Origin: Escherichia coli
GTDB lineage: Bacteria; Pseudomonadota; Gammaproteobacteria; Enterobacterales; Enterobacteriaceae
DNA: 64,000 bases
Strand: one strand, 5' to 3'
Assembly (NCBI RefSeq): GCF_011045215.1
Contig: NZ_CP049201.1
How positions within the stretch are numbered: the first letter of the stretch is position 1; every line of letters begins with the position of its first letter. The translations under genes and the position numbers were made by a program. Below, one piece after another: positions 8,483-32,375 of this stretch. The notes beneath the pieces were generated by a model, which saw only the letters and a list, made by a program, of their open reading frames with translations, was not told the DNA's origin and did no database searches.

Positions 8483-10717
8483 ATGGTTGCGGTAAGAAGT
8501 GCACATATCAATAAGGCTGGTGAATTTGATCCGGAAAAATGGATCGCAAGTCTGGGTATTACCAGCCAGAAGTCGTGTGAGTGCTTAGCCGAAACCTGGG
8601 CGTATTGTCTGCAACAGACGCAGGGGCATCCGGATGCCAGTCTGTTATTGTGGCGTGGTGTTGAGATGGTGGAGATCCTCTCGACATTAAGTATGGACAT
8701 TGACACGCTGCGGGCGGCGCTGCTGTTCCCTCTGGCTGATGCCAACGTAGTCAGCGAAGATGTGCTGCGTGAGAGCGTCGGTAAGTCGGTCGTTAACCTT
8801 ATTCACGGCGTGCGTGATATGGCGGCGATCCGCCAGCTGAAAGCGACGCACACTGATTCTGTTTCCTCCGAACAGGTCGATAACGTTCGCCGGATGTTAT
8901 TGGCGATGGTCGATGATTTTCGCTGCGTGGTCATCAAACTGGCGGAGCGTATTGCTCATCTGCGTGAAGTAAAAGATGCGCCGGAAGATGAACGCGTACT
9001 GGCGGCAAAAGAGTGCACTAATATCTACGCGCCGCTGGCGAACCGTCTTGGGATTGGGCAACTGAAATGGGAGCTGGAAGATTACTGCTTCCGTTATCTC
9101 CACCCGACCGAATATAAACGCATCGCAAAACTGTTGCATGAACGCCGTCTCGACCGCGAACACTATATCGAAGAGTTTGTCGGCCATCTGCGCGCTGAGA
9201 TGAAAGCTGAAGGCGTTAAAGCTGAAGTGTATGGTCGTCCGAAACACATCTACAGCATCTGGCGCAAAATGCAGAAAAAGAACCTCGCCTTCGATGAGCT
9301 GTTTGATGTGCGTGCGGTACGTATTGTCGCCGAGCGTTTACAGGATTGTTATGCCGCACTGGGGATAGTGCACACTCACTATCGCCACCTGCCGGATGAG
9401 TTTGATGATTACGTCGCTAACCCGAAACCAAACGGTTATCAGTCTATTCATACCGTGGTTCTGGGGCCGGGTGGAAAAACCGTTGAGATCCAAATCCGCA
9501 CCAAACAGATGCATGAAGATGCAGAGTTGGGTGTTGCTGCGCACTGGAAATATAAAGAGGGCGCGGCTGCTGGCGGCGCACGTTCGGGACATGAAGACCG
9601 GATTGCCTGGCTGCGTAAACTGATTGCGTGGCAGGAAGAGATGGCTGATTCCGGCGAAATGCTCGACGAAGTACGTAGTCAGGTGTTTGACGACCGGGTG
9701 TATGTCTTTACGCCGAAAGGTGATGTCGTTGATTTGCCTGCGGGATCAACGCCGCTGGACTTCGCTTACCACATCCACAGTGATGTCGGACACCGCTGCA
9801 TCGGGGCAAAAATTGGCGGGCGCATTGTGCCGTTCACCTACCAGCTGCAGATGGGCGACCAGATTGAAATTATCACCCAGAAACAGCCGAACCCCAGCCG
9901 TGACTGGTTAAACCCAAACCTCGGTTACGTCACAACCAGCCGTGGGCGTTCGAAAATTCACGCCTGGTTCCGTAAACAGGACCGTGACAAAAACATTCTG
10001 GCTGGGCGGCAAATCCTTGACGACGAGCTGGAACATCTGGGGATCAGCCTGAAAGAAGCAGAAAAACATCTGCTGCCGCGTTACAACTTCAATGATGTCG
10101 ACGAGTTGCTGGCGGCGATTGGTGGCGGGGATATCCGTCTCAATCAGATGGTGAACTTCCTGCAATCGCAATTTAATAAGCCGAGTGCCGAAGAGCAGGA
10201 CGCCGCCGCGCTGAAACAGCTTCAGCAAAAAAGCTACACACCGCAAAACCGCAGTAAAGATAACGGTCGTGTGGTGGTTGAAGGTGTCGGTAACCTGATG
10301 CACCACATCGCGCGCTGCTGCCAGCCGATTCCTGGAGATGAGATTGTCGGCTTCATTACCCAGGGACGCGGTATTTCAGTACACCGCGCCGATTGCGAAC
10401 AACTGGCGGAACTGCGCTCCCATGCGCCAGAACGCATTGTTGACGCGGTATGGGGCGAGAGCTACTCCGCCGGATATTCACTGGTGGTCCGCGTGGTGGC
10501 TAATGATCGTAGTGGGTTGTTACGTGATATCACGACCATTCTCGCCAACGAGAAGGTGAACGTGCTTGGCGTTGCCAGCCGTAGCGACACCAAACAGCAA
10601 CTGGCGACCATCGACATGACCATTGAGATTTACAACCTGCAAGTGCTGGGGCGCGTGCTGGGTAAACTCAACCAGGTGCCGGATGTTATCGACGCGCGTC
10701 GGTTGCACGGGAGTTAG
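8483..10717 (+). CDS. relA: (p)ppGpp synthetase I RelA
   Basis: 744-aa ORF; RelA/SpoT synthetase, TGS and ACT regions; synteny. Confidence 0.95.
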   Translation: MVAVRSAHINKAGEFDPEKWIASLGITSQKSCECLAETWAYCLQQTQGHPDASLLLWRGVEMVEILSTLSMDIDTLRAALLFPLADANVVSEDVLRESVGKSVVNLIHGVRDMAAIRQLKATHTDSVSSEQVDNVRRMLLAMVDDFRCVVIKLAERIAHLREVKDAPEDERVLAAKECTNIYAPLANRLGIGQLKWELEDYCFRYLHPTEYKRIAKLLHERRLDREHYIEEFVGHLRAEMKAEGVKAEVYGRPKHIYSIWRKMQKKNLAFDELFDVRAVRIVAERLQDCYAALGIVHTHYRHLPDEFDDYVANPKPNGYQSIHTVVLGPGGKTVEIQIRTKQMHEDAELGVAAHWKYKEGAAAGGARSGHEDRIAWLRKLIAWQEEMADSGEMLDEVRSQVFDDRVYVFTPKGDVVDLPAGSTPLDFAYHIHSDVGHRCIGAKIGGRIVPFTYQLQMGDQIEIITQKQPNPSRDWLNPNLGYVTTSRGRSKIHAWFRKQDRDKNILAGRQILDDELEHLGISLKEAEKHLLPRYNFNDVDELLAAIGGGDIRLNQMVNFLQSQFNKPSAEEQDAAALKQLQQKSYTPQNRSKDNGRVVVEGVGNLMHHIARCCQPIPGDEIVGFITQGRGISVHRADCEQLAELRSHAPERIVDAVWGESYSAGYSLVVRVVANDRSGLLRDITTILANEKVNVLGVASRSDTKQQLATIDMTIEIYNLQVLGRVLGKLNQVPDVIDARRLHGS

Positions 10718-21214: not shown

Positions 21215-22693
21215 TTACGCATTCGACCAGCTCTGGATCGAATCCGCATTTCCCAATTCCCCATGCATCACTTCATACGATTTTTTCAGAATCACATCAG
21301 TATGTTTGGTTAGGTCTTTGAAAATGCCTTTATTCATCGCGTCGTAGCGTTTGGCATTGCTCTCAATCGGTATAAAGATATCTTTCACGCGAACCATTTT
21401 ATCGACAGCCGTTGCGTAATCCGGGTATAGCCCCAGACCTACCGCGGTATTAATCGCTGCCCCCAGACTTGCACAACCGTTAATGGCGTTACGGCGTGCC
21501 GGAAGGTTGAACACGTCGGCAAAAATTTGCATAAACAGATCGCTGTTCGAACCGCCGCCAGTAATGATCACATGCTTTGCAAAGTGATTCATTTCATTAC
21601 ACATATTGTCGTAATTGTTCTTCAGCGTCAGCGCCACGCTTTCCAGTATCGAACGATATATCCATGCGTAATCCATGCTGGAATCAAAGCCGATCATAAT
21701 CCCACGTTTGTAGGGTTCCCACGGGTTGGTCAGCCAGTCCAGCACCGTCATCAGACCATTACAGCCAGGCGGCACACAAGAAGCTTTTTTGTTGAGCAAA
21801 TCTTCCGGTGAAAGATCCTGTGCTTTGGCATCCTGAATTAACGACTCGCCTAACATGTCGCGCAGCCAGCTCACCGTCCACATGCCTTTGCGAATACCGT
21901 AACCTTCATACAGCAATGTTTGCGGAATAGAAGACATAATCGGCCAGTACGCCACCGGATCTTTCGGCAAGGCTTTGCCATTCATCATCAGCGCGATATA
22001 AGTACCGAGTGAAATCACCGCCGTTTCATCATCCAGTAATCCGGCCCCCAGAGCTTCTACCGGTTTATCACTGGTGGTACAAACAACCGGCAGCCCTGCC
22101 GGGAAATGTGTCGCCAGCGCGGCTTGAGGTGTGATCTGTCCAAGAACAGTGCCTGGCATTTGCACATCAAACAGCATATGACGGGGGATATTAAACTTCT
22201 CCATGACTGCGGCATCTTCACTCCATGCCCAGCTCTTATAATCCACCGGCCACTGACCAAAATAGTTGGCGATATTGTCTTTAAACTCGCCGGTTAAGCG
22301 ATGCGTCAGATAACCCGAAAAAGAGGTGACATATGCCACGTCAGGATTAGTGTGTTCGTAGGGACGCGTTACGCGTGCATCCTGCCAGCTAATCAATGGC
22401 GCAGCTGGCGTGCCATCGGCTTTCAATAACGCACGGCAGCAACGGATGGATCCCAGACCAATACCGACAATATCTTCTTTATTCCCGGCAAACTGACTCA
22501 TCAAATCGTGACCGGCAAAACATAATGATGCCCATAAATCGTCGTCAGGATGTTCTGCAGTATCGGCATCTGGCGTGTGCATCGGCTGCAATAAGCCTTT
22601 ACCTTCGCAAACCACATTACCTTCCAGATCGTACATCACCACTTTTGTGCTCTGACTTCCGCCATCAATCCCTATGATGTATTTTTTCGACAT
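21215..22693 (-). CDS. ygcE: FGGY-family carbohydrate kinase
   Basis: 492-aa ORF with MSKKYIIGIDGGSQSTKVVMYD N-terminus typical of FGGY kinases. Confidence 0.85.
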   Translation of the reverse strand: MSKKYIIGIDGGSQSTKVVMYDLEGNVVCEGKGLLQPMHTPDADTAEHPDDDLWASLCFAGHDLMSQFAGNKEDIVGIGLGSIRCCRALLKADGTPAAPLISWQDARVTRPYEHTNPDVAYVTSFSGYLTHRLTGEFKDNIANYFGQWPVDYKSWAWSEDAAVMEKFNIPRHMLFDVQMPGTVLGQITPQAALATHFPAGLPVVCTTSDKPVEALGAGLLDDETAVISLGTYIALMMNGKALPKDPVAYWPIMSSIPQTLLYEGYGIRKGMWTVSWLRDMLGESLIQDAKAQDLSPEDLLNKKASCVPPGCNGLMTVLDWLTNPWEPYKRGIMIGFDSSMDYAWIYRSILESVALTLKNNYDNMCNEMNHFAKHVIITGGGSNSDLFMQIFADVFNLPARRNAINGCASLGAAINTAVGLGLYPDYATAVDKMVRVKDIFIPIESNAKRYDAMNKGIFKDLTKHTDVILKKSYEVMHGELGNADSIQSWSNA

Positions 22694-22719
22694 GATTTTT
22701 CTCCTGTAATTTTCCTGGC

Positions 22720-23997
22720 TTACTTGCTGCTAGCCATTGCGGGGGCGCTATCAGCAGTACGAATTTTTTGGAACAGCAAAAAGGTAAAGACAATCACCAT
22801 GGCAAGCGCCGCCATGCCCATCAGCCACATATTGCGGTAGGCTTCTGCTGCGGGCAGGGTGTCTTGCCAGTGGCCGATAATTGGGTAAACGAAGACATCC
22901 GGCAGGAATCCTATCACCGAACAAATACCTACCGTGGTGCCCATAATGTAAGACGGTGTTCTCGCTTCGCCAGGGCAGGCCCAGTACAGCCCGCGTGAGG
23001 CGTAACATGTGAATCCCAGCAGTAAAATCAGGCCAATCCCCATCGCGACCGATTGCGGGTTAGAGTTCGTGACGAGCAGGGCAGTTAACGCCAGCAGGCC
23101 GAGTACGGAAAGGATTTGGATCACGCGGGTAGGGGATTTCACTTTGCTGTAGGTGGTGATTATGCCGCCAAGTGGGCCGCACAGCGCGCGGAAGATTTTG
23201 TTGATCACAATCCCCATGTAGCTCGCCGCCACCAGCGACATGCCGTACATTTCGGTCAGATAGTTGGTGGAGTAACTCAGAATGGCGTAGATGGTGAAGA
23301 CACCAAAAATCACCATGCTGCAATACCAGGTGGTACTGATACGCAAAACGGCCAGGATATCGCTAAGCTGGAATGACTGTTTTTCTTCGTTATTGGCACT
23401 GCGCAGGTTGTTGTTATCGCTAACAAAAAACCAGCACAGAAGCCCCAACAAGATGTAAACCACACTGTAGATGATAATGACCGTTTTCAGGCTGGCGCTG
23501 TCATCCGGTGCAAAGCGAGAAAAGACCCACATGGTAAACACCGCCAGCGACATTACACCGACGCCGCGCAGCCCTTCCATCCAGCCCATAATTTTCCCTT
23601 GCTCGCTATGATCGCCAAGCAACGATGCGGCTTTAATCGACACCGACCACAGCATTAAAATCGTTGTTATCGCAAAGGCGACCTGAATACAGAGCATTAC
23701 CCACAGCGGTGGATACGTTGCCATTAACAGACCCAGTAATCCGGTAATGATCATCGCGGAAGTAATCATTTTGCGGTGTGAAAATTTATCGGCAATAACG
23801 CCGCTGGGGGCATAAAGAATAATAGCCGCAATACCAAAGGTACTCATTATTAAACCTATCTCGGTATTGCTGAATCCCATAAATTTCGCCATGGGAATTT
23901 GATAAATATAACGTAAATAAGCCAGGTCGAAACTAACGCCGCCGCTAAAACTAATTATCGCGAGGGTTATCCAACGGCGATATGAGTTGTGTTGCAT
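22720..23997 (-). CDS. yqcE: MFS transporter
   Basis: 425-aa multi-TM ORF; position between ygcE and ygcW. Confidence 0.85.
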   Translation of the reverse strand: MQHNSYRRWITLAIISFSGGVSFDLAYLRYIYQIPMAKFMGFSNTEIGLIMSTFGIAAIILYAPSGVIADKFSHRKMITSAMIITGLLGLLMATYPPLWVMLCIQVAFAITTILMLWSVSIKAASLLGDHSEQGKIMGWMEGLRGVGVMSLAVFTMWVFSRFAPDDSASLKTVIIIYSVVYILLGLLCWFFVSDNNNLRSANNEEKQSFQLSDILAVLRISTTWYCSMVIFGVFTIYAILSYSTNYLTEMYGMSLVAASYMGIVINKIFRALCGPLGGIITTYSKVKSPTRVIQILSVLGLLALTALLVTNSNPQSVAMGIGLILLLGFTCYASRGLYWACPGEARTPSYIMGTTVGICSVIGFLPDVFVYPIIGHWQDTLPAAEAYRNMWLMGMAALAMVIVFTFLLFQKIRTADSAPAMASSK

Positions 23998-24021
23998 ATC
24001 GTATTCCCATTTGTAATAGAC

Positions 24022-24069
24022 AAAAAAAAGAGAAAAGTAAGCCGCCCTTTCAGGTGGATTACTTTTCTC
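24022..24069 (-). terminator. leader hairpin plus U-run just upstream of the yqcE start (candidate attenuator)
   Basis: Minus-strand RNA reads GAGAAAAGUAA - 18-nt loop - UUACUUUUCUC - UUUUUUUU, ending about 25 nt before the yqcE ATG. Confidence 0.45.
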
Positions 24070-24172
24070 AGGTCTCTAGTAATTGAAATAATAAATAACA
24101 TGGAAAGCAGAGGTGTTGTGTGAGAGTAATCACGCTTCTGCTTTTTAAAACTATTTGATAATGCGAATATCA

Positions 24173-24194
24173 CACTGTGATTACGATCACATTA
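24173..24194. promoter_or_regulatory. CRP-binding site, perfect consensus core
   Basis: TGTGA-ttacga-TCACA at 24176-24191, central in the yqcE/ygcW divergent region. Confidence 0.6.
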
Positions 24195-24243
24195 GCAGTT
24201 ATGTCCTTATGCTAAAAATTATCTCCAGTTACCAGAGATAATG

Positions 24244-24292
24244 AGAAAGGTAACTTCCCTCTCGCGGGGGAAGTTACCTTTCTTTTTTTTTT
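24244..24292 (+). terminator. strong intrinsic terminator in the ygcW leader (candidate attenuator)
   Basis: 16-bp perfect stem agaaaggtaacttccc / gggaagttacctttct, 7-nt loop, 9-10 T run; ends 25 nt before the ygcW ATG; no upstream plus-strand gene to terminate. Confidence 0.6.
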
Positions 24293-24316
24293 GCCTTACG
24301 GAAATTGGAGCTAACT

Positions 24317-25102
24317 ATGTCAATCGAATCTCTCAATGCGTTCTCAATGGATTTTTTCTCCCTGAAAGGTAAAACCGCAATTGTTACCGGCGGGAATAGC
24401 GGTTTAGGCCAGGCATTTGCCATGGCGTTGGCCAAAGCAGGCGCAAATGTCTTTATTCCAAGTTTTGTCAAAGATAACGGCGAAACAAAGGAAATGATTG
24501 AAAAACAGGGTGTTGAGGTGGACTTCATGCAGGTGGATATCACCGCAGAAGGCGCGCCGCAGAAGATAATCGCCGCCTGTTGCGAACGTTTCGGTACCGT
24601 CGATATTCTGGTTAACAATGCCGGTATTTGTAAGCTGAATAAGGTGCTGGACTTCGGTCGTGCCGACTGGGACCCGATGATTGATGTGAACCTGACCGCC
24701 GCATTCGAGTTAAGCTATGAAGCGGCAAAAATTATGATCCCGCAGAAAAGCGGTAAAATCATTAATATCTGTTCATTATTCTCTTACTTAGGTGGACAAT
24801 GGTCACCTGCATATTCTGCCACTAAACATGCTCTTGCCGGATTCACCAAAGCTTATTGTGATGAACTAGGTCAATATAATATTCAGGTAAATGGTATTGC
24901 CCCTGGCTATTATGCAACAGATATTACGCTGGCGACACGCAGTAATCCAGAAACCAATCAGCGCGTTCTTGATCATATTCCAGCAAACCGTTGGGGCGAT
25001 ACTCAGGATTTAATGGGCGCAGCCGTATTCCTCGCAAGTCAGGCATCGAATTATGTCAACGGGCATTTATTAGTGGTCGATGGCGGTTATTTAGTGCGCT
25101 AA
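24317..25102 (+). CDS. ygcW: short-chain dehydrogenase/reductase
   Basis: ATG at 24317 (track's 24305 is TTG); TGGNSGLG Rossmann motif and YSATK catalytic motif. Confidence 0.85.
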   Translation: MSIESLNAFSMDFFSLKGKTAIVTGGNSGLGQAFAMALAKAGANVFIPSFVKDNGETKEMIEKQGVEVDFMQVDITAEGAPQKIIAACCERFGTVDILVNNAGICKLNKVLDFGRADWDPMIDVNLTAAFELSYEAAKIMIPQKSGKIINICSLFSYLGGQWSPAYSATKHALAGFTKAYCDELGQYNIQVNGIAPGYYATDITLATRSNPETNQRVLDHIPANRWGDTQDLMGAAVFLASQASNYVNGHLLVVDGGYLVR

Positions 25103-25171
25103 TCCATAACGGCGGTTTCTGTTTTCTCTTATTAATGATTATTCCATTTTTATTATCAGGAAGGAATTACT

Positions 25172-26626
25172 ATGTCTTTATCTCGCGCAGCGATTGTCGA
25201 CCAGCTAAAGGAAATTGTTGGTGCAGATCGCGTAATTACCGATGAAACAGTATTAAAGAAGAACAGTATTGACCGTTTTCGTAAATTTCCGGATATTCAT
25301 GGTATTTATACTTTGCCGATTCCGGCTGCGGTCGTAAAACTCGGTTCCACAGAACAAGTCTCCCGTGTGCTGAATTTTATGAATGCGCACAAAATTAACG
25401 GTGTGCCGCGTACCGGTGCTTCCGCCACCGAAGGTGGGCTGGAAACTGTTGTAGAAAACTCGGTGGTGCTCGACGGTTCCGCCATGAATCAAATCATTAA
25501 TATTGATATTGAGAATATGCAGGCGACGGCGCAATGTGGCGTTCCGCTGGAGGTGCTGGAAAACGCGTTGCGTGAAAAAGGTTACACCACGGGGCATTCT
25601 CCGCAGTCAAAGCCGCTGGCGCAGATGGGCGGCCTGGTAGCAACCCGCAGTATCGGGCAGTTCTCCACACTCTACGGCGCAATCGAAGATATGGTCGTTG
25701 GTCTGGAAGCCGTATTGGCTGATGGCACCGTCACACGTATTAAAAACGTGCCACGCCGCGCGGCTGGCCCGGACATTCGTCACATCATCATCGGCAACGA
25801 AGGTGCATTGTGCTATATCACTGAAGTAACAGTGAAAATCTTTAAATTCACCCCGGAAAACAACCTCTTCTACGGCTATATCCTGGAAGACATGAAAACC
25901 GGCTTCAACATCCTGCGTGAAATCATGGTGGAAGGGTATCGTCCGTCGATCGCTCGTTTGTATGACGCTGAAGATGGCACCCAACACTTCACCCATTTTG
26001 CCGACGGAAAATGCGTGCTGATCTTTATGGCTGAAGGTAACCCTCGCATTGCGAAGGCGACGGGCGAAGGGATTGCGGAAATCGTTGCCCGCTACCCGCA
26101 ATGCCAGCGCGTGGACAGCAAGCTGATCGAAACCTGGTTTAACAACCTGAACTGGGGACCGGATAAAGTGGCTGCCGAACGTGTGCAGATCCTCAAAACC
26201 GGCAACATGGGCTTTACTACCGAAGTGTCCGGCTGCTGGAGCTGCATCCACGAAATCTACGAAAGCGTTATTAACCGTATTCGTACCGAGTTCCCGCACG
26301 CCGACGACATCACTATGCTGGGCGGTCACTCCTCTCATAGCTATCAGAACGGCACCAACATGTACTTCGTCTACGACTACAACGTTGTCAACTGTAAGCC
26401 GGAAGAGGAAATCGACAAGTACCACAATCCGCTCAACAAAATCATTTGCGAAGAAACCATTCGCCTCGGTGGTTCGATGGTGCACCACCACGGTATCGGT
26501 AAACATCGCGTTCACTGGAGCAAGCTGGAACACGGCAGCGCGTGGGCGTTGCTGGAAGGGCTGAAAAAGCAGTTCGATCCTAACGGCATTATGAATACGG
26601 GTACTATCTATCCGATTGAAAAATAA
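25172..26626 (+). CDS. ygcU: FAD-linked oxidase (GlcD / alkyl-DHAP synthase-like)
   Basis: 484-aa ORF with FAD-binding PCMH-type N-domain (PRTGASATEGG). Confidence 0.85.
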   Translation: MSLSRAAIVDQLKEIVGADRVITDETVLKKNSIDRFRKFPDIHGIYTLPIPAAVVKLGSTEQVSRVLNFMNAHKINGVPRTGASATEGGLETVVENSVVLDGSAMNQIINIDIENMQATAQCGVPLEVLENALREKGYTTGHSPQSKPLAQMGGLVATRSIGQFSTLYGAIEDMVVGLEAVLADGTVTRIKNVPRRAAGPDIRHIIIGNEGALCYITEVTVKIFKFTPENNLFYGYILEDMKTGFNILREIMVEGYRPSIARLYDAEDGTQHFTHFADGKCVLIFMAEGNPRIAKATGEGIAEIVARYPQCQRVDSKLIETWFNNLNWGPDKVAAERVQILKTGNMGFTTEVSGCWSCIHEIYESVINRIRTEFPHADDITMLGGHSSHSYQNGTNMYFVYDYNVVNCKPEEEIDKYHNPLNKIICEETIRLGGSMVHHHGIGKHRVHWSKLEHGSAWALLEGLKKQFDPNGIMNTGTIYPIEK

Positions 26627-26719
26627 TGTGTCAGGCAGCGTTCCGCGATGATGGGGCGTTGCCTTTTCGGCTTCTCAGGCGAGAAGCCGTTCTTATTACC
26701 GGACAATGAAGGGGTAAAG

Positions 26720-28057
26720 ATGAACACTTCACCGGTGCGAATGGATGATTTACCGCTTAACCGTTTTCACTGTCGAATTGCTGCGCTCACTTTCGGCGCA
26801 CACCTGACCGACGGTTATGTTCTCGGCGTCATTGGTTACGCCATTATTCAACTTACGCCCGCCATGCAACTGACGCCGTTTATGGCGGGAATGATCGGCG
26901 GCTCGGCGCTCCTTGGTTTGTTTCTTGGCAGCCTGGTTCTTGGGTGGATCTCCGACCATATTGGTCGGCAAAAAATCTTCACCTTCAGCTTTTTGCTGAT
27001 TACGCTCGCTTCGTTCCTGCAATTTTTTGCCACCACGCCAGAGCATCTTATTGGACTGCGCATTTTGATCGGCATTGGTCTGGGAGGCGATTACTCAGTA
27101 GGTCACACCTTGCTGGCTGAATTTTCCCCGCGCCGCCATCGCGGTGTTTTGCTGGGCGCATTCAGCGTGGTGTGGACCGTAGGCTATGTGTTAGCAAGTA
27201 TTGCCGGACATCACTTTATTTCCGAAAACCCGGAGGCCTGGCGCTGGCTGCTGGCATCGGCAGCTCTGCCCGCGTTGTTGATTACGTTATTACGCTGGGG
27301 AACGCCAGAATCGCCACGCTGGCTACTGCGCCAGGGGCGTTTTGCAGAAGCTCACGCTATCGTGCATCGCTATTTTGGTCCCCATGTTTTACTGGGCGAT
27401 GAAGTGGAAACGGCGACCCATAAACACATCAAAACCTTGTTCTCTTCGCGCTACTGGCGGCGCACGGCGTTTAACAGCGTCTTCTTTGTCTGCCTCGTAA
27501 TCCCATGGTTTGTGATTTATACCTGGCTGCCAACTATCGCCCAGACTATTGGTCTGGAAGATGCGCTGACTGCCAGCCTGATGCTTAATGCGTTGTTAAT
27601 TGTGGGCGCGCTGCTGGGATTAGTTCTGACGCACCTGCTGGCACATCGCAAGTTTTTGCTGGGAAGTTTTTTGCTGCTGGCGGCAACGCTGGTAGTAATG
27701 GCCTGTTTGCCTTCCGGCAGTTCATTAACGCTGCTGCTTTTTGTTCTCTTCAGCACCACCATTTCGGCAGTCAGTAATCTGGTGGGCATTTTGCCTGCGG
27801 AAAGTTTTCCTACTGACATTCGCTCGCTGGGCGTCGGTTTTGCCACCGCCATGAGTCGACTTGGCGCGGCGGTAAGTACTGGCCTGCTGCCGTGGGTGCT
27901 GGCGCAGTGGGGAATGCAAGTTACCTTATTGATCCTGGCGGCAGTGTTGTTAGTTGGTTTTGTCGTGACCTGGCTATGGGCACCAGAAACCAAAGCACTC
28001 CCGCTGGTGGCGGCGGGAAATGTAGGAGGTGCGAATGAACATTCTGTTAGCGTTTAA
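26720..28057 (+). CDS. ygcS: MFS sugar-type transporter
   Basis: ATG at 26720 gives 445 aa; 12-TM profile; sugar-porter-like motifs. Confidence 0.85.
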   Translation: MNTSPVRMDDLPLNRFHCRIAALTFGAHLTDGYVLGVIGYAIIQLTPAMQLTPFMAGMIGGSALLGLFLGSLVLGWISDHIGRQKIFTFSFLLITLASFLQFFATTPEHLIGLRILIGIGLGGDYSVGHTLLAEFSPRRHRGVLLGAFSVVWTVGYVLASIAGHHFISENPEAWRWLLASAALPALLITLLRWGTPESPRWLLRQGRFAEAHAIVHRYFGPHVLLGDEVETATHKHIKTLFSSRYWRRTAFNSVFFVCLVIPWFVIYTWLPTIAQTIGLEDALTASLMLNALLIVGALLGLVLTHLLAHRKFLLGSFLLLAATLVVMACLPSGSSLTLLLFVLFSTTISAVSNLVGILPAESFPTDIRSLGVGFATAMSRLGAAVSTGLLPWVLAQWGMQVTLLILAAVLLVGFVVTWLWAPETKALPLVAAGNVGGANEHSVSV

Positions 28058-28814
28058 AGCCGAACCGGATGCCGGAATGCTGGCGGAAAAAGAGTGGCAG
28101 GCGGCGGCTCAGGGTAATAGCGGACCGGATGTTTCGCTACTGCGAAGTTTACTCGGTGCTGATGAACAGGCCGCTGCCGCGCTGCTGTTGGCGCAGAGAA
28201 AAAACGGTACGCCGATGTCTTTAACCGCGTTGAGCATGGGGGATGAACGGGCGTTGCACTGGCTGCGCTATCTCATGGCTCTTGGGTTTGAGGAAGCTGT
28301 ATTGCTGGAGACGGCGGCAGATCTGCGCTTTGCGCCGGAATTTGTCGCTCGCCATATTGCCGAATGGCAGCGTCAGAATCCGCTGGATCTGATAATTACT
28401 GGCTGCCAAAGCAGCGAAGGGCAGAATGGGCAAACGCCATTTTTGCTGGCGGAAATGCTGGGCTGGCCTTGCTTCACCCAGGTGGAGCGTTTCACTCTCG
28501 ACGCGCCGTTTATCACCCTCGAACAGCGTACTGAATATGGGCTGCGCTGTTGCCGGGTTCGCTTGCCTGCGGTGATTGCCGTGCGTCAGAGTGGTGAAGT
28601 GGCCTTGCCAGTACCGGGAATGCGCCAGCGAATGGCTGCGGGGAAAGCAGCCATTATCCGCAAAACTGTTGCTGTCGAATTGCCAGCGATGCAGTGTCTG
28701 CAACTGGCAAGAGCAGAGCAACGACGCGGAGCGACGCTGATTGATGGGCAAACGGTAGCAGAAAAAGCGCAAAAGCTATGGCAGGACTATTTACGCCAAA
28801 GGATGCAGCCATGA
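28035..28814 (+). CDS. ygcR: electron transfer flavoprotein beta-subunit-like protein
   Basis: ATG at 28035 (track's 28029 is GTG); 259 aa; overlaps the ygcS end and the ygcQ start. Confidence 0.8.
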   Translation: MNILLAFKAEPDAGMLAEKEWQAAAQGNSGPDVSLLRSLLGADEQAAAALLLAQRKNGTPMSLTALSMGDERALHWLRYLMALGFEEAVLLETAADLRFAPEFVARHIAEWQRQNPLDLIITGCQSSEGQNGQTPFLLAEMLGWPCFTQVERFTLDAPFITLEQRTEYGLRCCRVRLPAVIAVRQSGEVALPVPGMRQRMAAGKAAIIRKTVAVELPAMQCLQLARAEQRRGATLIDGQTVAEKAQKLWQDYLRQRMQP

Positions 28815-29671
28815 ATATCGCAATTGTGACAATAAATCAGGAGAATGCCGCAATAGCAAGCTGGCTGGCGGCGCAGGATTTCAGCGGTTGTACCCTGGCG
28901 CACTGGCAGATTGAACCTCAGCCCGTAGTGGCGGAACAGGTGCTGGATGCGCTGGTGGAACAGTGGCAGCGAACGCCTGCGGACGTTGTTCTCTTTCCGC
29001 CGGGAACGTTTGGCGATGAACTGTCGACCCGGCTGGCCTGGCGTTTACATGGTGCAAGCATCTGCCAGGTGACTTCGTTAGATATTCCAACCGTAAGCGT
29101 GCGCAAATCCCACTGGGGAAATGCGCTAACGGCGACGCTGCAAACAGAAAAACGCCCGCTATGCCTTTCCCTGGCGCGTCAGGCGGGAGCAGCGAAAAAC
29201 GCCACGTTGCCCTCTGGAATGCAACAACTGAACATTGTCCCGGGTGCGCTTCCGGACTGGCTGGTTAGCACAGAGGATCTGAAAAATGTTACTCGCGACC
29301 CATTAGCTGAGGCCAGACGGGTGCTGGTGGTGGGGCAGGGCGGAGAGGCAGATAACCAGGAAATCGCTATGCTGGCAGAAAAGCTGGGAGCCGAAGTGGG
29401 CTACAGTCGGGCGCGAGTGATGAACGGTGGCGTTGATGCTGAAAAAGTGATTGGTATTTCCGGACATCTGCTGGCACCTGAGGTGTGTATTGTTGTTGGC
29501 GCTTCTGGCGCAGCAGCGTTAATGGCGGGCGTACGCAATAGCAAGTTTGTGGTGGCGATTAATCATGACGCCAGCGCAGCGGTATTTTCACAGGCAGATG
29601 TTGGCGTGGTTGATGACTGGAAAGTGGTGCTGGAGGCACTGGTGACAAACATTGACGCAGAATGCCAATAA
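28811..29671 (+). CDS. ygcQ: electron transfer flavoprotein alpha-subunit-like protein
   Basis: ATG at 28811 gives 286 aa; C-terminal ETF-alpha FAD-binding region. Confidence 0.8.
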   Translation: MNIAIVTINQENAAIASWLAAQDFSGCTLAHWQIEPQPVVAEQVLDALVEQWQRTPADVVLFPPGTFGDELSTRLAWRLHGASICQVTSLDIPTVSVRKSHWGNALTATLQTEKRPLCLSLARQAGAAKNATLPSGMQQLNIVPGALPDWLVSTEDLKNVTRDPLAEARRVLVVGQGGEADNQEIAMLAEKLGAEVGYSRARVMNGGVDAEKVIGISGHLLAPEVCIVVGASGAAALMAGVRNSKFVVAINHDASAAVFSQADVGVVDDWKVVLEALVTNIDAECQ

Positions 29672-29817: not shown

Positions 29818-30393
29818 TCAAAGCAATTTTTTCGCTAACGTCCAGACTCCGGTATTCGTGGTGGAAAGCGCCACGACACCCGCGTTAATCGCATTACGCG
29901 CATCTTCTTCATCGCATACCAGCCCGCCAGCAATCAGCGGTTGGCGGATTTTTTCCGTCACCCAGCCCAGCACTTTGGGCATGCAGCCTGGCAGGATCTC
30001 AATACAATCCGGATTCGATTGCGCAACTTGCTTATCAATGTTGTGAAACGAAATCGAATCAACAATAAACAGGCGATGAATACAGAAAAAACCTTCCGCT
30101 CTTGCCGCTTTCAACATTGAGGCTTTGGTACTGATAATGCCGTCCGCCTCGGTCACCAGTTTCAAAAACTGAATAACGACTTCTTTATTTGACGCGCCTT
30201 CCAGCAAATCAACATGAATAAAAGCATATTTCCCGGCGTTCTTAATCTTTTTAACGATATTACTGATGGTGCAGATATTGCCGTACAACACGGAAATAAA
30301 CTGGCATTCAGAATCGATTGCCAGTTGCAGGCTGGCATTATCTTTAACGGCAGCAATCACCGGATTCTGGCGGAGCAGGTGTAAGAGGGGCAT
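29818..30393 (-). CDS. ygcP: GlpP-family (glycerol-3-phosphate-responsive-type) antiterminator-like protein
   Basis: 191-aa ORF; position after ygcO in the ygcNOP operon; family assignment recalled from K-12 annotation. Confidence 0.75.
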   Translation of the reverse strand: MPLLHLLRQNPVIAAVKDNASLQLAIDSECQFISVLYGNICTISNIVKKIKNAGKYAFIHVDLLEGASNKEVVIQFLKLVTEADGIISTKASMLKAARAEGFFCIHRLFIVDSISFHNIDKQVAQSNPDCIEILPGCMPKVLGWVTEKIRQPLIAGGLVCDEEDARNAINAGVVALSTTNTGVWTLAKKLL

Positions 30394-31932: not shown

Positions 31933-32009
31933 GTCATGCCCCAGATATCCTGAACACAACACCCTAACATAGCGTTACTTAAGGGAAATTGACCGCCGAC
32001 ACACTCTTA

Positions 32010-32375
32010 TCATTCGCCGCGATAGATACAACCAGCGGTGCAGGTTTCTTTTACCATCACCGCACTTAACAGCGGCACAACGGGTTTAACCTGATCCCAA
32101 ATCCATTTTGCTAAAACTTCGCTAGTTGGGTTTTCCAGACCTGGAATATCATTGAGATAATGGTGATCGAGGCGCTCATAAGTTGGCTTAAACGCCGCTT
32201 TTAGTTCAGCGAAATCGATAATCCAGCCCGTATGCGGATCGACTTCCCCGGTAATTTCCAGTCGCACCATAAAGGAATGCCCGTGCAGGCGACCACATTT
32301 ATGCCCTTCCGGGACGTGTGGTAAGCGGTGAGCGGCTTCGAAGGTGAAATCTTTAAATAACGTGGTGGACATCAT
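32010..32375 (-). CDS. queD: 6-carboxy-5,6,7,8-tetrahydropterin synthase QueD
   Basis: ATG at 32375 ([19 protein letters not shown]...) gives 121 aa; the track ORF carries a 28-codon upstream extension; Cx(5)HGH zinc motif. Confidence 0.9.

Follow-up and report, generated by a model that had tools for sequence, protein, structure and literature searches.

In Bacillus subtilis, GlpP bound to glycerol-3-phosphate is described in reviews as binding the antiterminator of the glpD leader (PMC7430163), and the glpD 5′ untranslated region (UTR) alone is enough to place foreign promoters under GlpP- and glycerol-dependent control (PMC9604022). The papers on GlpP consulted here do not define the RNA determinants of this binding. 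In Escherichia coli, the K-12 annotation of YgcP, a protein of the same family, goes no further than 'putative anti-terminator'. Here we analyse a 64,000-nucleotide stretch of E. coli DNA (contig NZ_CP049201.1 of assembly GCF_011045215.1, hereafter the window) in which two divergently transcribed genes, yqcE and ygcW, are each preceded by a leader with a hairpin and a U-run, with binding sites for CRP between them and ygcP 5.5 kb away.

Taken together, the evidence makes it likely that the two divergent operons form a CRP-activated regulon in which both leaders are gated by YgcP through antitermination; the dependence on YgcP and the inducer we infer. A catabolite-controlled, antitermination-gated regulon had been the original prediction, made from the sequence of the window, and this reading now gains support from published transcript ends, the conservation and covariation of the leaders, CRP binding at one of the sites, an alternative hairpin that we call P1, and a layout like that of glpD.

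Leader terminators and published transcripts

Both leaders contain a strong predicted intrinsic terminator (Table 1). On the ygcW side the stem comprises 19 pairs, including G·U, followed by a run of ten T, and its fold of -31 kcal/mol (z = -6.9) was matched in stability by none of 200 shuffled sequences. On the yqcE side a lower stem of 11 bp is followed by U8 (-22 kcal/mol, z = -4.2). The original prediction had described both hairpins, about 25 nt ahead of the start codons, with nearly the same motif in their 5′ arms: the hairpins and U-runs stand as proposed, the distance from the end of the U-run to the start codon is 24 nt for both genes, and the motif GAGAAARGTAA lies in both 5′ arms, at 24243-24253 (+) and 24069-24059 (-). 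The 18-nt segment first taken as the loop of the yqcE hairpin is itself paired (CC.CCU/AGG.GG).

The likeness of the two sides extends well past the 11-nt motif. Their upstream sequences align over about 120 nt, taking in the extended -10, the transcription start site (TSS), the leader, the terminator, the U-run and the Shine–Dalgarno (SD) region, and, as read from this alignment, the ygcW and yqcE sides are two paralogous divergent modules. Each is built in the same order, with a CRP site at -41.5, a TGn extended -10, the TSS and a leader of about 65 nt, then the SD and ATG. This extended similarity, the alternative hairpin P1 and a second CRP-like site go beyond what had been noted before.

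Transcripts of both leaders have been published. The catalogue of Romero et al. 2014 (PMC4681348, Table S5) contains a pair of short RNAs from the spacer: ecr2774 (73 nt), detected by RNA-seq on the same strand as ygcW and upstream of it, and ecr2775 (63 nt), upstream of yqcE, detected by RNA-seq and verified by northern blot. Conversion of their coordinates to the window is accurate to about 2 nt, owing to the shift between U00096.2 and U00096.3, and shows both RNAs reaching from a TSS about 18 nt before the hairpin to the U-run. Term-seq in lysogeny broth (LB) at an optical density of 0.4 (Adams et al. 2021; PMC7815308, supplementary file 3) places 3′ ends at 2900311 (-) and 2900556 (+) of K-12, 38 and 36 nt upstream of the two open reading frames (ORFs), with read counts of 40,640 and 1,557; both are scored 'No' for Rho dependence and have intrinsic-terminator scores far above the threshold of 3 (Table 1). 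In window coordinates the ends fall at about 24278 (+) and 24033 (-), by way of positions 10311 and 10556 of our K-12 locus L002, which equal 2900311 and 2900556. Transcripts ending at both hairpins, which had been put forward as a check, are therefore documented by Rho-independent Term-seq ends and by ecr2774 and ecr2775. Folds, published TSSs and 3′ ends agree that each 5′ UTR contains an intrinsic terminator, located past the promoter and ahead of the first gene, as in GlpP-type leaders.

An alternative hairpin that covaries

The 5′ part of each leader is predicted to form a second hairpin, P1, which in yqcE pairs AUUACU with AGUAAU around the loop AGAGACCUGAGAAA. The loop contains two conserved GAG boxes (AGAGA...GAGAAA). 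The terminator 5′ arm begins with the second GAG box (GAGAAA) and the P1 3′ strand, and P1 and the terminator are mutually exclusive. Leaders cut before the terminator 3′ arm are predicted to fold into P1 and a small upper hairpin, and full-length leaders into the terminator, at -34.7 (ygcW) and -22.3 (yqcE) kcal/mol. The leaders thus share a second feature with GlpP-type leaders, an alternative structure overlapping the terminator 5′ arm, as seen in both fold and covariation.

A scan with YgcP, taking one genome per species, gave 64 loci, all of them retrieved through their PF04309 (GlpP-family) gene, and nearly all Enterobacterales loci have two divergent copies of the leader element. Standard base pairs occupy positions 2-7 of P1 in 96-100% of the 93 distinct leaders: pair 2 is G-C in 66 and A-U in 26, pair 7 is U-A in 66 and C-G in 23, and pairs 3 and 4 alternate between U-A and U·G. 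These pairs were recounted in Python, anchored on the invariant TTAC and GAGAAA motifs, because the MAFFT alignment (A3) misplaces about 14 leaders in which the P1 5′ strand is followed by three extra nucleotides, which makes counts from A3 conservative. Even on the unadjusted alignment, 84.6% of P1 cells are paired, with 49 double-change cells, a result reached by none of 500 shuffles, and slid controls give 16-54%. For the terminator, 91.5% of cells are paired and seven pairs show changes on both sides. With conservation and covariation seen across more than 90 distinct sequences, the leader elements are not a product of chance. Conservation of hairpins and motif had also been proposed as a check, and both are kept, and covary, from Enterobacterales into Firmicutes, always beside a ygcP orthologue.

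The covariation also bears on whether the elements act as RNA or DNA. Since each is an inverted repeat and the two mirror one another, they might be read as DNA palindromes, either operators of a dimeric transcription factor or remnants of mobile or repetitive extragenic palindromic (REP)-like elements flanking the CRP region. In the lower stem, however, G·U pairs outnumber A·C pairs by 89 to 11, so pairing holds in the transcribed strand only and has been selected in the sense RNA. The two elements differ in half-site spacing (18 versus 20 nt), which is highly variable from species to species, and transcripts end at both; a role as DNA palindromes is most improbable. We rejected the operator on the G·U/A·C asymmetry, and the REP-like or mobile element on copy number, with a median of two places per E. 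coli genome, a maximum of four and none on plasmids.

P1 also bears on whether the terminators are regulated at all. ecr2774 and ecr2775 are abundant in LB and catalogued as small RNAs (sRNAs), with U-tails that could bind Hfq, so the terminators could be constitutive, yielding stand-alone sRNAs or serving to damp or insulate transcription with no regulated read-through. We regard this as unlikely. The 24 nt between U-run and start codon are too short for another promoter, so both operons can be expressed by read-through only, and a covarying P1 and an invariant GAG box outside the terminator would serve nothing in a plain terminator. That first box is invariant despite lying beyond the terminator, and the spacer between the two boxes is variable.

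Promoters and CRP sites

The perfect CRP core TGTGA-N6-TCACA of the original prediction lies where it had been placed, between the two leaders (site 1; Table 1). It had already been predicted computationally in 2007. In vitro, CRP binds it with an estimated dissociation constant (Kd) of 1.7 nM, as determined by Footprint-seq (PMC12871828). CRP-like site 2 lies 57 bp from perfect site 1.

In all enterobacterial loci examined, each leader has its own CRP-like site, matching 8-10 of the 10 core positions and centred 43-46 nt upstream of the leader TTAC, and the TGn -10 between site and TTAC is kept. Because the CRP centres stand at -41.5 from both TSSs and this spacing is conserved among enterobacterial loci, both promoters are class II CRP-dependent promoters by architecture, at which activation by CRP, and CRP binding to site 2, are predicted.

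Table 1. Coordinates of the leaders, control sites and associated genes in the window
Feature	Position	Strand	Details and evidence
ygcW leader RNA	24224..24292	+	ecr2774 at ~24224-24298, ~6 nt past the U-run; Term-seq 3′ end; R1 86 bits
yqcE leader RNA	24022..24085	-	ecr2775, 63 nt, ~24085-24022; Term-seq; R1 79.6 bits
ygcW leader intrinsic terminator	24243..24292	+	Stem 24243-24284, U-run 24283-24292; Term-seq intrinsic-terminator score 15.8
yqcE leader intrinsic terminator	24022..24069	-	Stem 24069-24030, U-run 24029-24022; Term-seq intrinsic-terminator score 11.4
ygcW predicted antiterminator hairpin P1	24227..24255	+	AGUUACC (24227-24233), loop AGAGAUAAUGAGAAA (24234-24248), GGUAACU (24249-24255); fold and covariation
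yqcE predicted antiterminator hairpin P1	24057..24084	-	AAUUACU (24084-24078), loop AGAGACCUGAGAAA (24077-24064), AGUAAUC (24063-24057); fold, module alignment and covariation
ygcW promoter, extended -10 TGcTAAAAA	24210..24218	+	Module alignment; 7 nt upstream of ecr2774 RNA-seq 5′ end
yqcE promoter, extended -10 TGtTATTTA	24092..24100	-	Module alignment; 7 nt upstream of ecr2775 5′ end
CRP site 1, TGTGAttacgaTCACA	24176..24191		TGTGA-N6-TCACA; centre 24183.5 = -41.5 from ygcW TSS (~24225)
Predicted CRP site 2, TGTGAgagtaaTCACG	24119..24134		9/10 core positions; centre 24126.5 = -41.5 from yqcE TSS (24085)
ygcW start codon	24317	+	ATG; ORF
yqcE start codon	23997	-	ATG; ORF
Proposed controlled operon ygcW-ygcU-ygcS-ygcR-ygcQ	24317..29671	+	Short-chain dehydrogenase/reductase (SDR), flavin adenine dinucleotide (FAD) oxidase, major facilitator superfamily (MFS) transporter, electron-transfer flavoprotein (ETF) beta, ETF alpha
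Proposed controlled operon yqcE-ygcE	21215..23997	-	MFS transporter, FGGY kinase
ygcP, putative PF04309 (GlpP-family) antiterminator, proposed trans-acting factor	29818..30393	-	Family profile and structure matches

Distribution and horizontal transfer

The enterobacterial loci include those of Escherichia, Citrobacter, Klebsiella, Enterobacter, Yokenella, Buttiauxella, Serratia, Rahnella, Ewingella, Pantoea, Erwinia, Budvicia and Limnobaculum, and their leaders follow the consensus CAGUUACU-AGAGAC-N3-GAGAAAAGUAACUUCC...GGGAAG-UUrCUUUUCUC-U8. R1, a covariance model trained on these 93 leaders, finds the element beyond Enterobacterales in Thalassobacillus and in five Listeria sensu lato species (AGUUGCU-AGAGAAUUGAGAUA-AGCGACU), and in two copies in Bacillus sp. 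DNRA2, Clostridium sediminicola, Sporomusa (AAUUACU/AGUAAUU) and Fodinisporobacter; the two copies in Vibrio hannami are divergent. The element therefore spans Enterobacterales, Vibrio, Bacilli, Clostridia and Negativicutes, and it accompanies ygcP orthologues. In the non-enterobacterial lineages it stands ahead of an orthologue of ygcW, ygcU, yqcE or ygcE, or ahead of a transporter gene, with a ygcP orthologue adjacent.

Distribution weighs against the leaders being metabolite-binding riboswitches in which a small ligand would stabilize the P1 loop directly, with no part for YgcP. A conserved hairpin with an invariant loop that overlaps a terminator has the look of small riboswitches, and a scan of the region against Rfam 15 (E <= 10) returned no family match (at best 25 bits or less, against gathering thresholds of 39-229), which would suit an undescribed class. 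Against this, only about 20 nt and one 7-bp helix lie upstream of the terminator, with a spacer variable in length and sequence, and a PF04309 gene adjoins the element in every fetched locus that has it, among loci that were all retrieved through that gene. Moreover, the similar-looking B. subtilis glpD leader needs GlpP (PMC9604022, PMC7430163). We give the riboswitch very little credence. Because of synteny, the motif would co-occur with ygcP whatever the mechanism, so that metagenomic co-occurrence cannot separate these alternatives.

Between E. coli and Listeria sensu lato, YgcW is 76-79%, YgcU 61-67% and YgcP 54-58% identical, and the transporter has been exchanged among lineages (MFS, betaine/carnitine/choline transporter (BCCT) or OpuA-type ATP-binding cassette (ABC)). 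The similarity of the core across phyla, above all that of YgcW, indicates that cluster and leader moved horizontally as a unit, and, with the swapped transporters, suggests a small polar substrate. In Listeria, one leader heads an operon ygcU-ygcP-yqcE-ygcW-ygcE; being inside the leader-controlled operon, ygcP would there be under its own control. Listeria grandensis and L. booriae encode two family members, a canonical GlpP beside mutL, with about 70% identity to its L. monocytogenes counterpart, and a YgcP-type paralogue; with both in one cell the two must discriminate between leaders or ligands.

Limnobaculum eriocheiris has a reduced arrangement (locus L033, 13878-13959), with a ygcW-yqcE spacer of about 130 bp and a single hairpin between an A-run and a T-run, which would terminate transcription both ways. 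This spacer has no promoters, CRP sites or P1; it is as if two leaders had fused and the control region had been lost.

YgcP and the leaders of GlpP targets

The identification of ygcP as a GlpP-family gene, part of the original prediction, is upheld. PF04309.19 is the precomputed family assignment of P0001, a protein 99% identical to YgcP, and YgcP matches the solved family members PDB 3KTS (1.2e-27) and 1VKF (8e-15), so that a significant profile match and structural matches both place it in PF04309. The linkage of a PF04309 gene to the controlled operons is kept across four bacterial classes. Searching the literature on ygcP, ecr2774/ecr2775 and PF04309, we found no publication that addresses what YgcP does or that treats these leaders as regulatory.

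The leaders of GlpP targets resemble those of the ygc cluster in layout, as judged by eye. The glpD 5′ UTR of B. subtilis, taken from Table S4 of PMC9604022, has CUGAGAUGAGGAGA within a short GGUC/GACC helix, the 3′ strand of which is the first part of the terminator 5′ arm. In Lachnoclostridium (E = 9e-4) and Faecalibacterium (E = 0.056), R1 also picks out leaders that immediately follow glpP and precede genes resembling glycerol-3-phosphate oxidase. The glpFK and glpD leaders of Priestia megaterium have, judged by eye, the same two GGAGA boxes, and R1 scores them at 12-21 bits, no higher than ordinary terminators. The canonical glpP loci of L. monocytogenes and L. booriae were uninformative for this comparison, as their target operons lie elsewhere. 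Canonical Bacillus and Priestia glp leaders (locus L073, 10599-10620 and 13178-13200; B. subtilis glpD 5′ UTR) all open with AAGUUAAUA. This resembles AGUUACU, the P1 5′ strand of ygc leaders, and may be a shared 5′ recognition element.

The gene cluster in E. coli

The ten-gene cluster is arranged as ygcE-yqcE <> ygcW-ygcU-ygcS-ygcR-ygcQ >< ygcP-ygcO-ygcN. The closest family matches of its enzymes are a KduD-like SDR, a GlcD-like FAD oxidase and a xylulokinase-like kinase, all under the curated cut-offs. By analogy, the logic of the cluster appears to mirror that of the glycerol regulon, with a transporter, a kinase and a flavoprotein dehydrogenase passing to ETF and ETF-quinone oxidoreductase (ETF-QO).

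The 521 bases around the leaders are matched in 5,067 of 5,426 complete E. coli genomes (>=95% identity), and K-12 MG1655 differs from the window in this region by a few single-nucleotide polymorphisms and one extra or missing T in a T-run. The region is absent altogether from about 7% of complete genomes. In E. coli FDAARGOS_944 (locus L001, 8044-14142), yqcE is interrupted by the insertion sequence IS1A and a copy of ISEc60 stands in place of the stretch from mid-ygcU to ygcN, ygcP included; the leaders are still 100% identical.

Discussion

In this work, we combined folds, comparative genomics and published transcript data to propose how two mirrored leaders might control the ygc/yqcE cluster. 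First, cAMP-CRP would activate initiation at both divergent class II promoters, with transcription starting at about 24225 and 24085, as judged from RNA-seq ends. The nascent leader would fold by default into the strong intrinsic terminator, stopping transcription about 24 nt before the start codon and freeing RNAs of 63 and 73 nt. When inducer is present, ligand-bound YgcP would bind the 5′ part of the leader, that is, P1 with its two GAG boxes. As the second GAG box and the P1 3′ strand are the terminator 5′ arm, bound YgcP would block the terminator, and RNA polymerase would enter ygcWUSRQ and yqcE-ygcE. By analogy with GlpK, glycerol-3-phosphate and GlpP, the inducer is probably the phosphorylated product of the FGGY kinase YgcE. 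For YgcP binding, its control by a ligand and the identity of the inducer, this is what we infer from the comparisons above.

Several observations weigh against this proposal. The link between YgcP and the leaders is our own proposal. The Term-seq 3′ ends lie inside the terminator 3′ arm (...GUUACC^ and ...CUUACUUUU^ in the K-12 sequence), 4-5 nt before the U-run; 3′ exonucleases may have trimmed the RNAs into the A-U-rich lower stem, or, alternatively, the effective terminator is the upper stem alone. P1 by itself is weak, with a fold of -5.9 kcal/mol (z = -0.2) for the nascent yqcE leader, so termination would be the default and a factor would be required to hold P1. For the same reason the case for P1 rests on covariation, in which the double changes segregate with the two paralogue classes and hence go back to a small number of independent events; other phyla supply independent variants.

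Two further points concern the regulator and its family. In E. coli, ygcP has no leader of this type: the queD-ygcN spacer (31936-32012), where a third leader ahead of ygcN/ygcP would lie, is without a hairpin and U-run, and R1 finds only the two leaders in the whole window and none ahead of ygcP. Upstream of ygcN-ygcO-ygcP there is thus nothing to put E. coli ygcP under antitermination control of its own. Finally, it is in architecture, as judged by eye, that the ygc leaders resemble proven GlpP targets, and R1 gives canonical Bacillus glp leaders 21 and 12 bits, in the range of ordinary terminators, from which it follows that R1 models the ygc subfamily and not all GlpP targets. As far as sequence goes, the ygc leaders are a tight subfamily, and the family-wide likeness is one of architecture.

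The short RNAs and CRP site 1 are already on record, and the combination of GlpP-type antitermination with catabolite control is known from B. subtilis. The RNA motif, the second CRP site, the mirrored modular architecture and the broad, horizontally transferred distribution are new. We lean slightly towards a wider interpretation, in which the dual GAG-box hairpin overlapping the terminator would be the conserved recognition element of a distinct YgcP subfamily or, more loosely, of PF04309 as a whole. The leaders would then constitute a cis-regulatory RNA family, absent from Rfam, that spread horizontally with a catabolic cluster between Firmicutes and Gammaproteobacteria and that represents the first GlpP-type antitermination switch in E. 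coli, responding to a phosphorylated YgcE metabolite.

If the proposal is true, YgcP gains its first predicted targets and the orphan ygc pathway an experimental handle. Two precise RNA targets, their promoters and a recognition motif open the annotation of YgcP to direct experiment, and a leader-reporter fusion could act as a biosensor for the inducer, and hence for the substrate of the cluster. Two catalogued sRNAs would be reread as attenuated leaders, more than 100 sequences would be contributed to a new cis-regulatory RNA family, and what GlpP-family proteins may recognize would receive a comparative definition.

Comparison with known systems

The RNAs described as 'simple stem-loop' small RNAs (PMC4681348) are identical to those discussed here, their coordinates mapping onto both leaders. 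They were presented there as candidate sRNAs, possibly REP-like, and were not tied to the downstream genes, CRP or YgcP.

The closest parallel is with the glpD, glpFK and glpTQ leaders controlled by B. subtilis GlpP. Both systems have a PF04309 regulator and an intrinsic terminator in the 5′ UTR just past the promoter, with purine-rich GAGA/GGAGA boxes immediately 5′ of and within the terminator 5′ arm and a short upstream helix that competes with the terminator. Catabolite repression is layered on both, through CcpA at glpFK and, as proposed, through CRP at ygc. The ygc system differs in its Gram-negative host, its promoters of class II CRP-dependent architecture and its two mirror-image copies, and its leaders form a tight sequence family, AGUUACU-AGAGA-N3-5-GAGAAAAGUAAC, whose model recognizes Bacillus glp leaders weakly. 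The genes it would control, encoding an SDR, a GlcD-like FAD oxidase, ETF and ETF-QO, an FGGY kinase and MFS transporters, are not glycerol genes, so the effector is probably not glycerol-3-phosphate.

Within E. coli, the bgl operon offers a similar arrangement. This catabolic operon is transcribed from a CRP-dependent promoter, and the RNA-binding protein BglG overcomes the terminator in its leader by stabilizing an alternative hairpin that overlaps the 5′ arm, much as is proposed for ygc. BglG and YgcP nevertheless belong to unrelated families (CAT-PRD and PF04309) with different RNA motifs, and BglG is controlled through phosphorylation by the phosphotransferase system (PTS), whereas a small phosphorylated ligand is proposed for ygc. 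The Bacillus proteins HutP, TRAP and PyrR resemble the proposed YgcP mechanism in being ligand-activated and in using short, repeated NAG/GAG-type leader motifs to choose between terminator and antiterminator. They differ from YgcP in protein fold and stoichiometry. The ygc leaders have just two GAG boxes, and TRAP and PyrR favour termination, whereas YgcP is proposed to prevent it.

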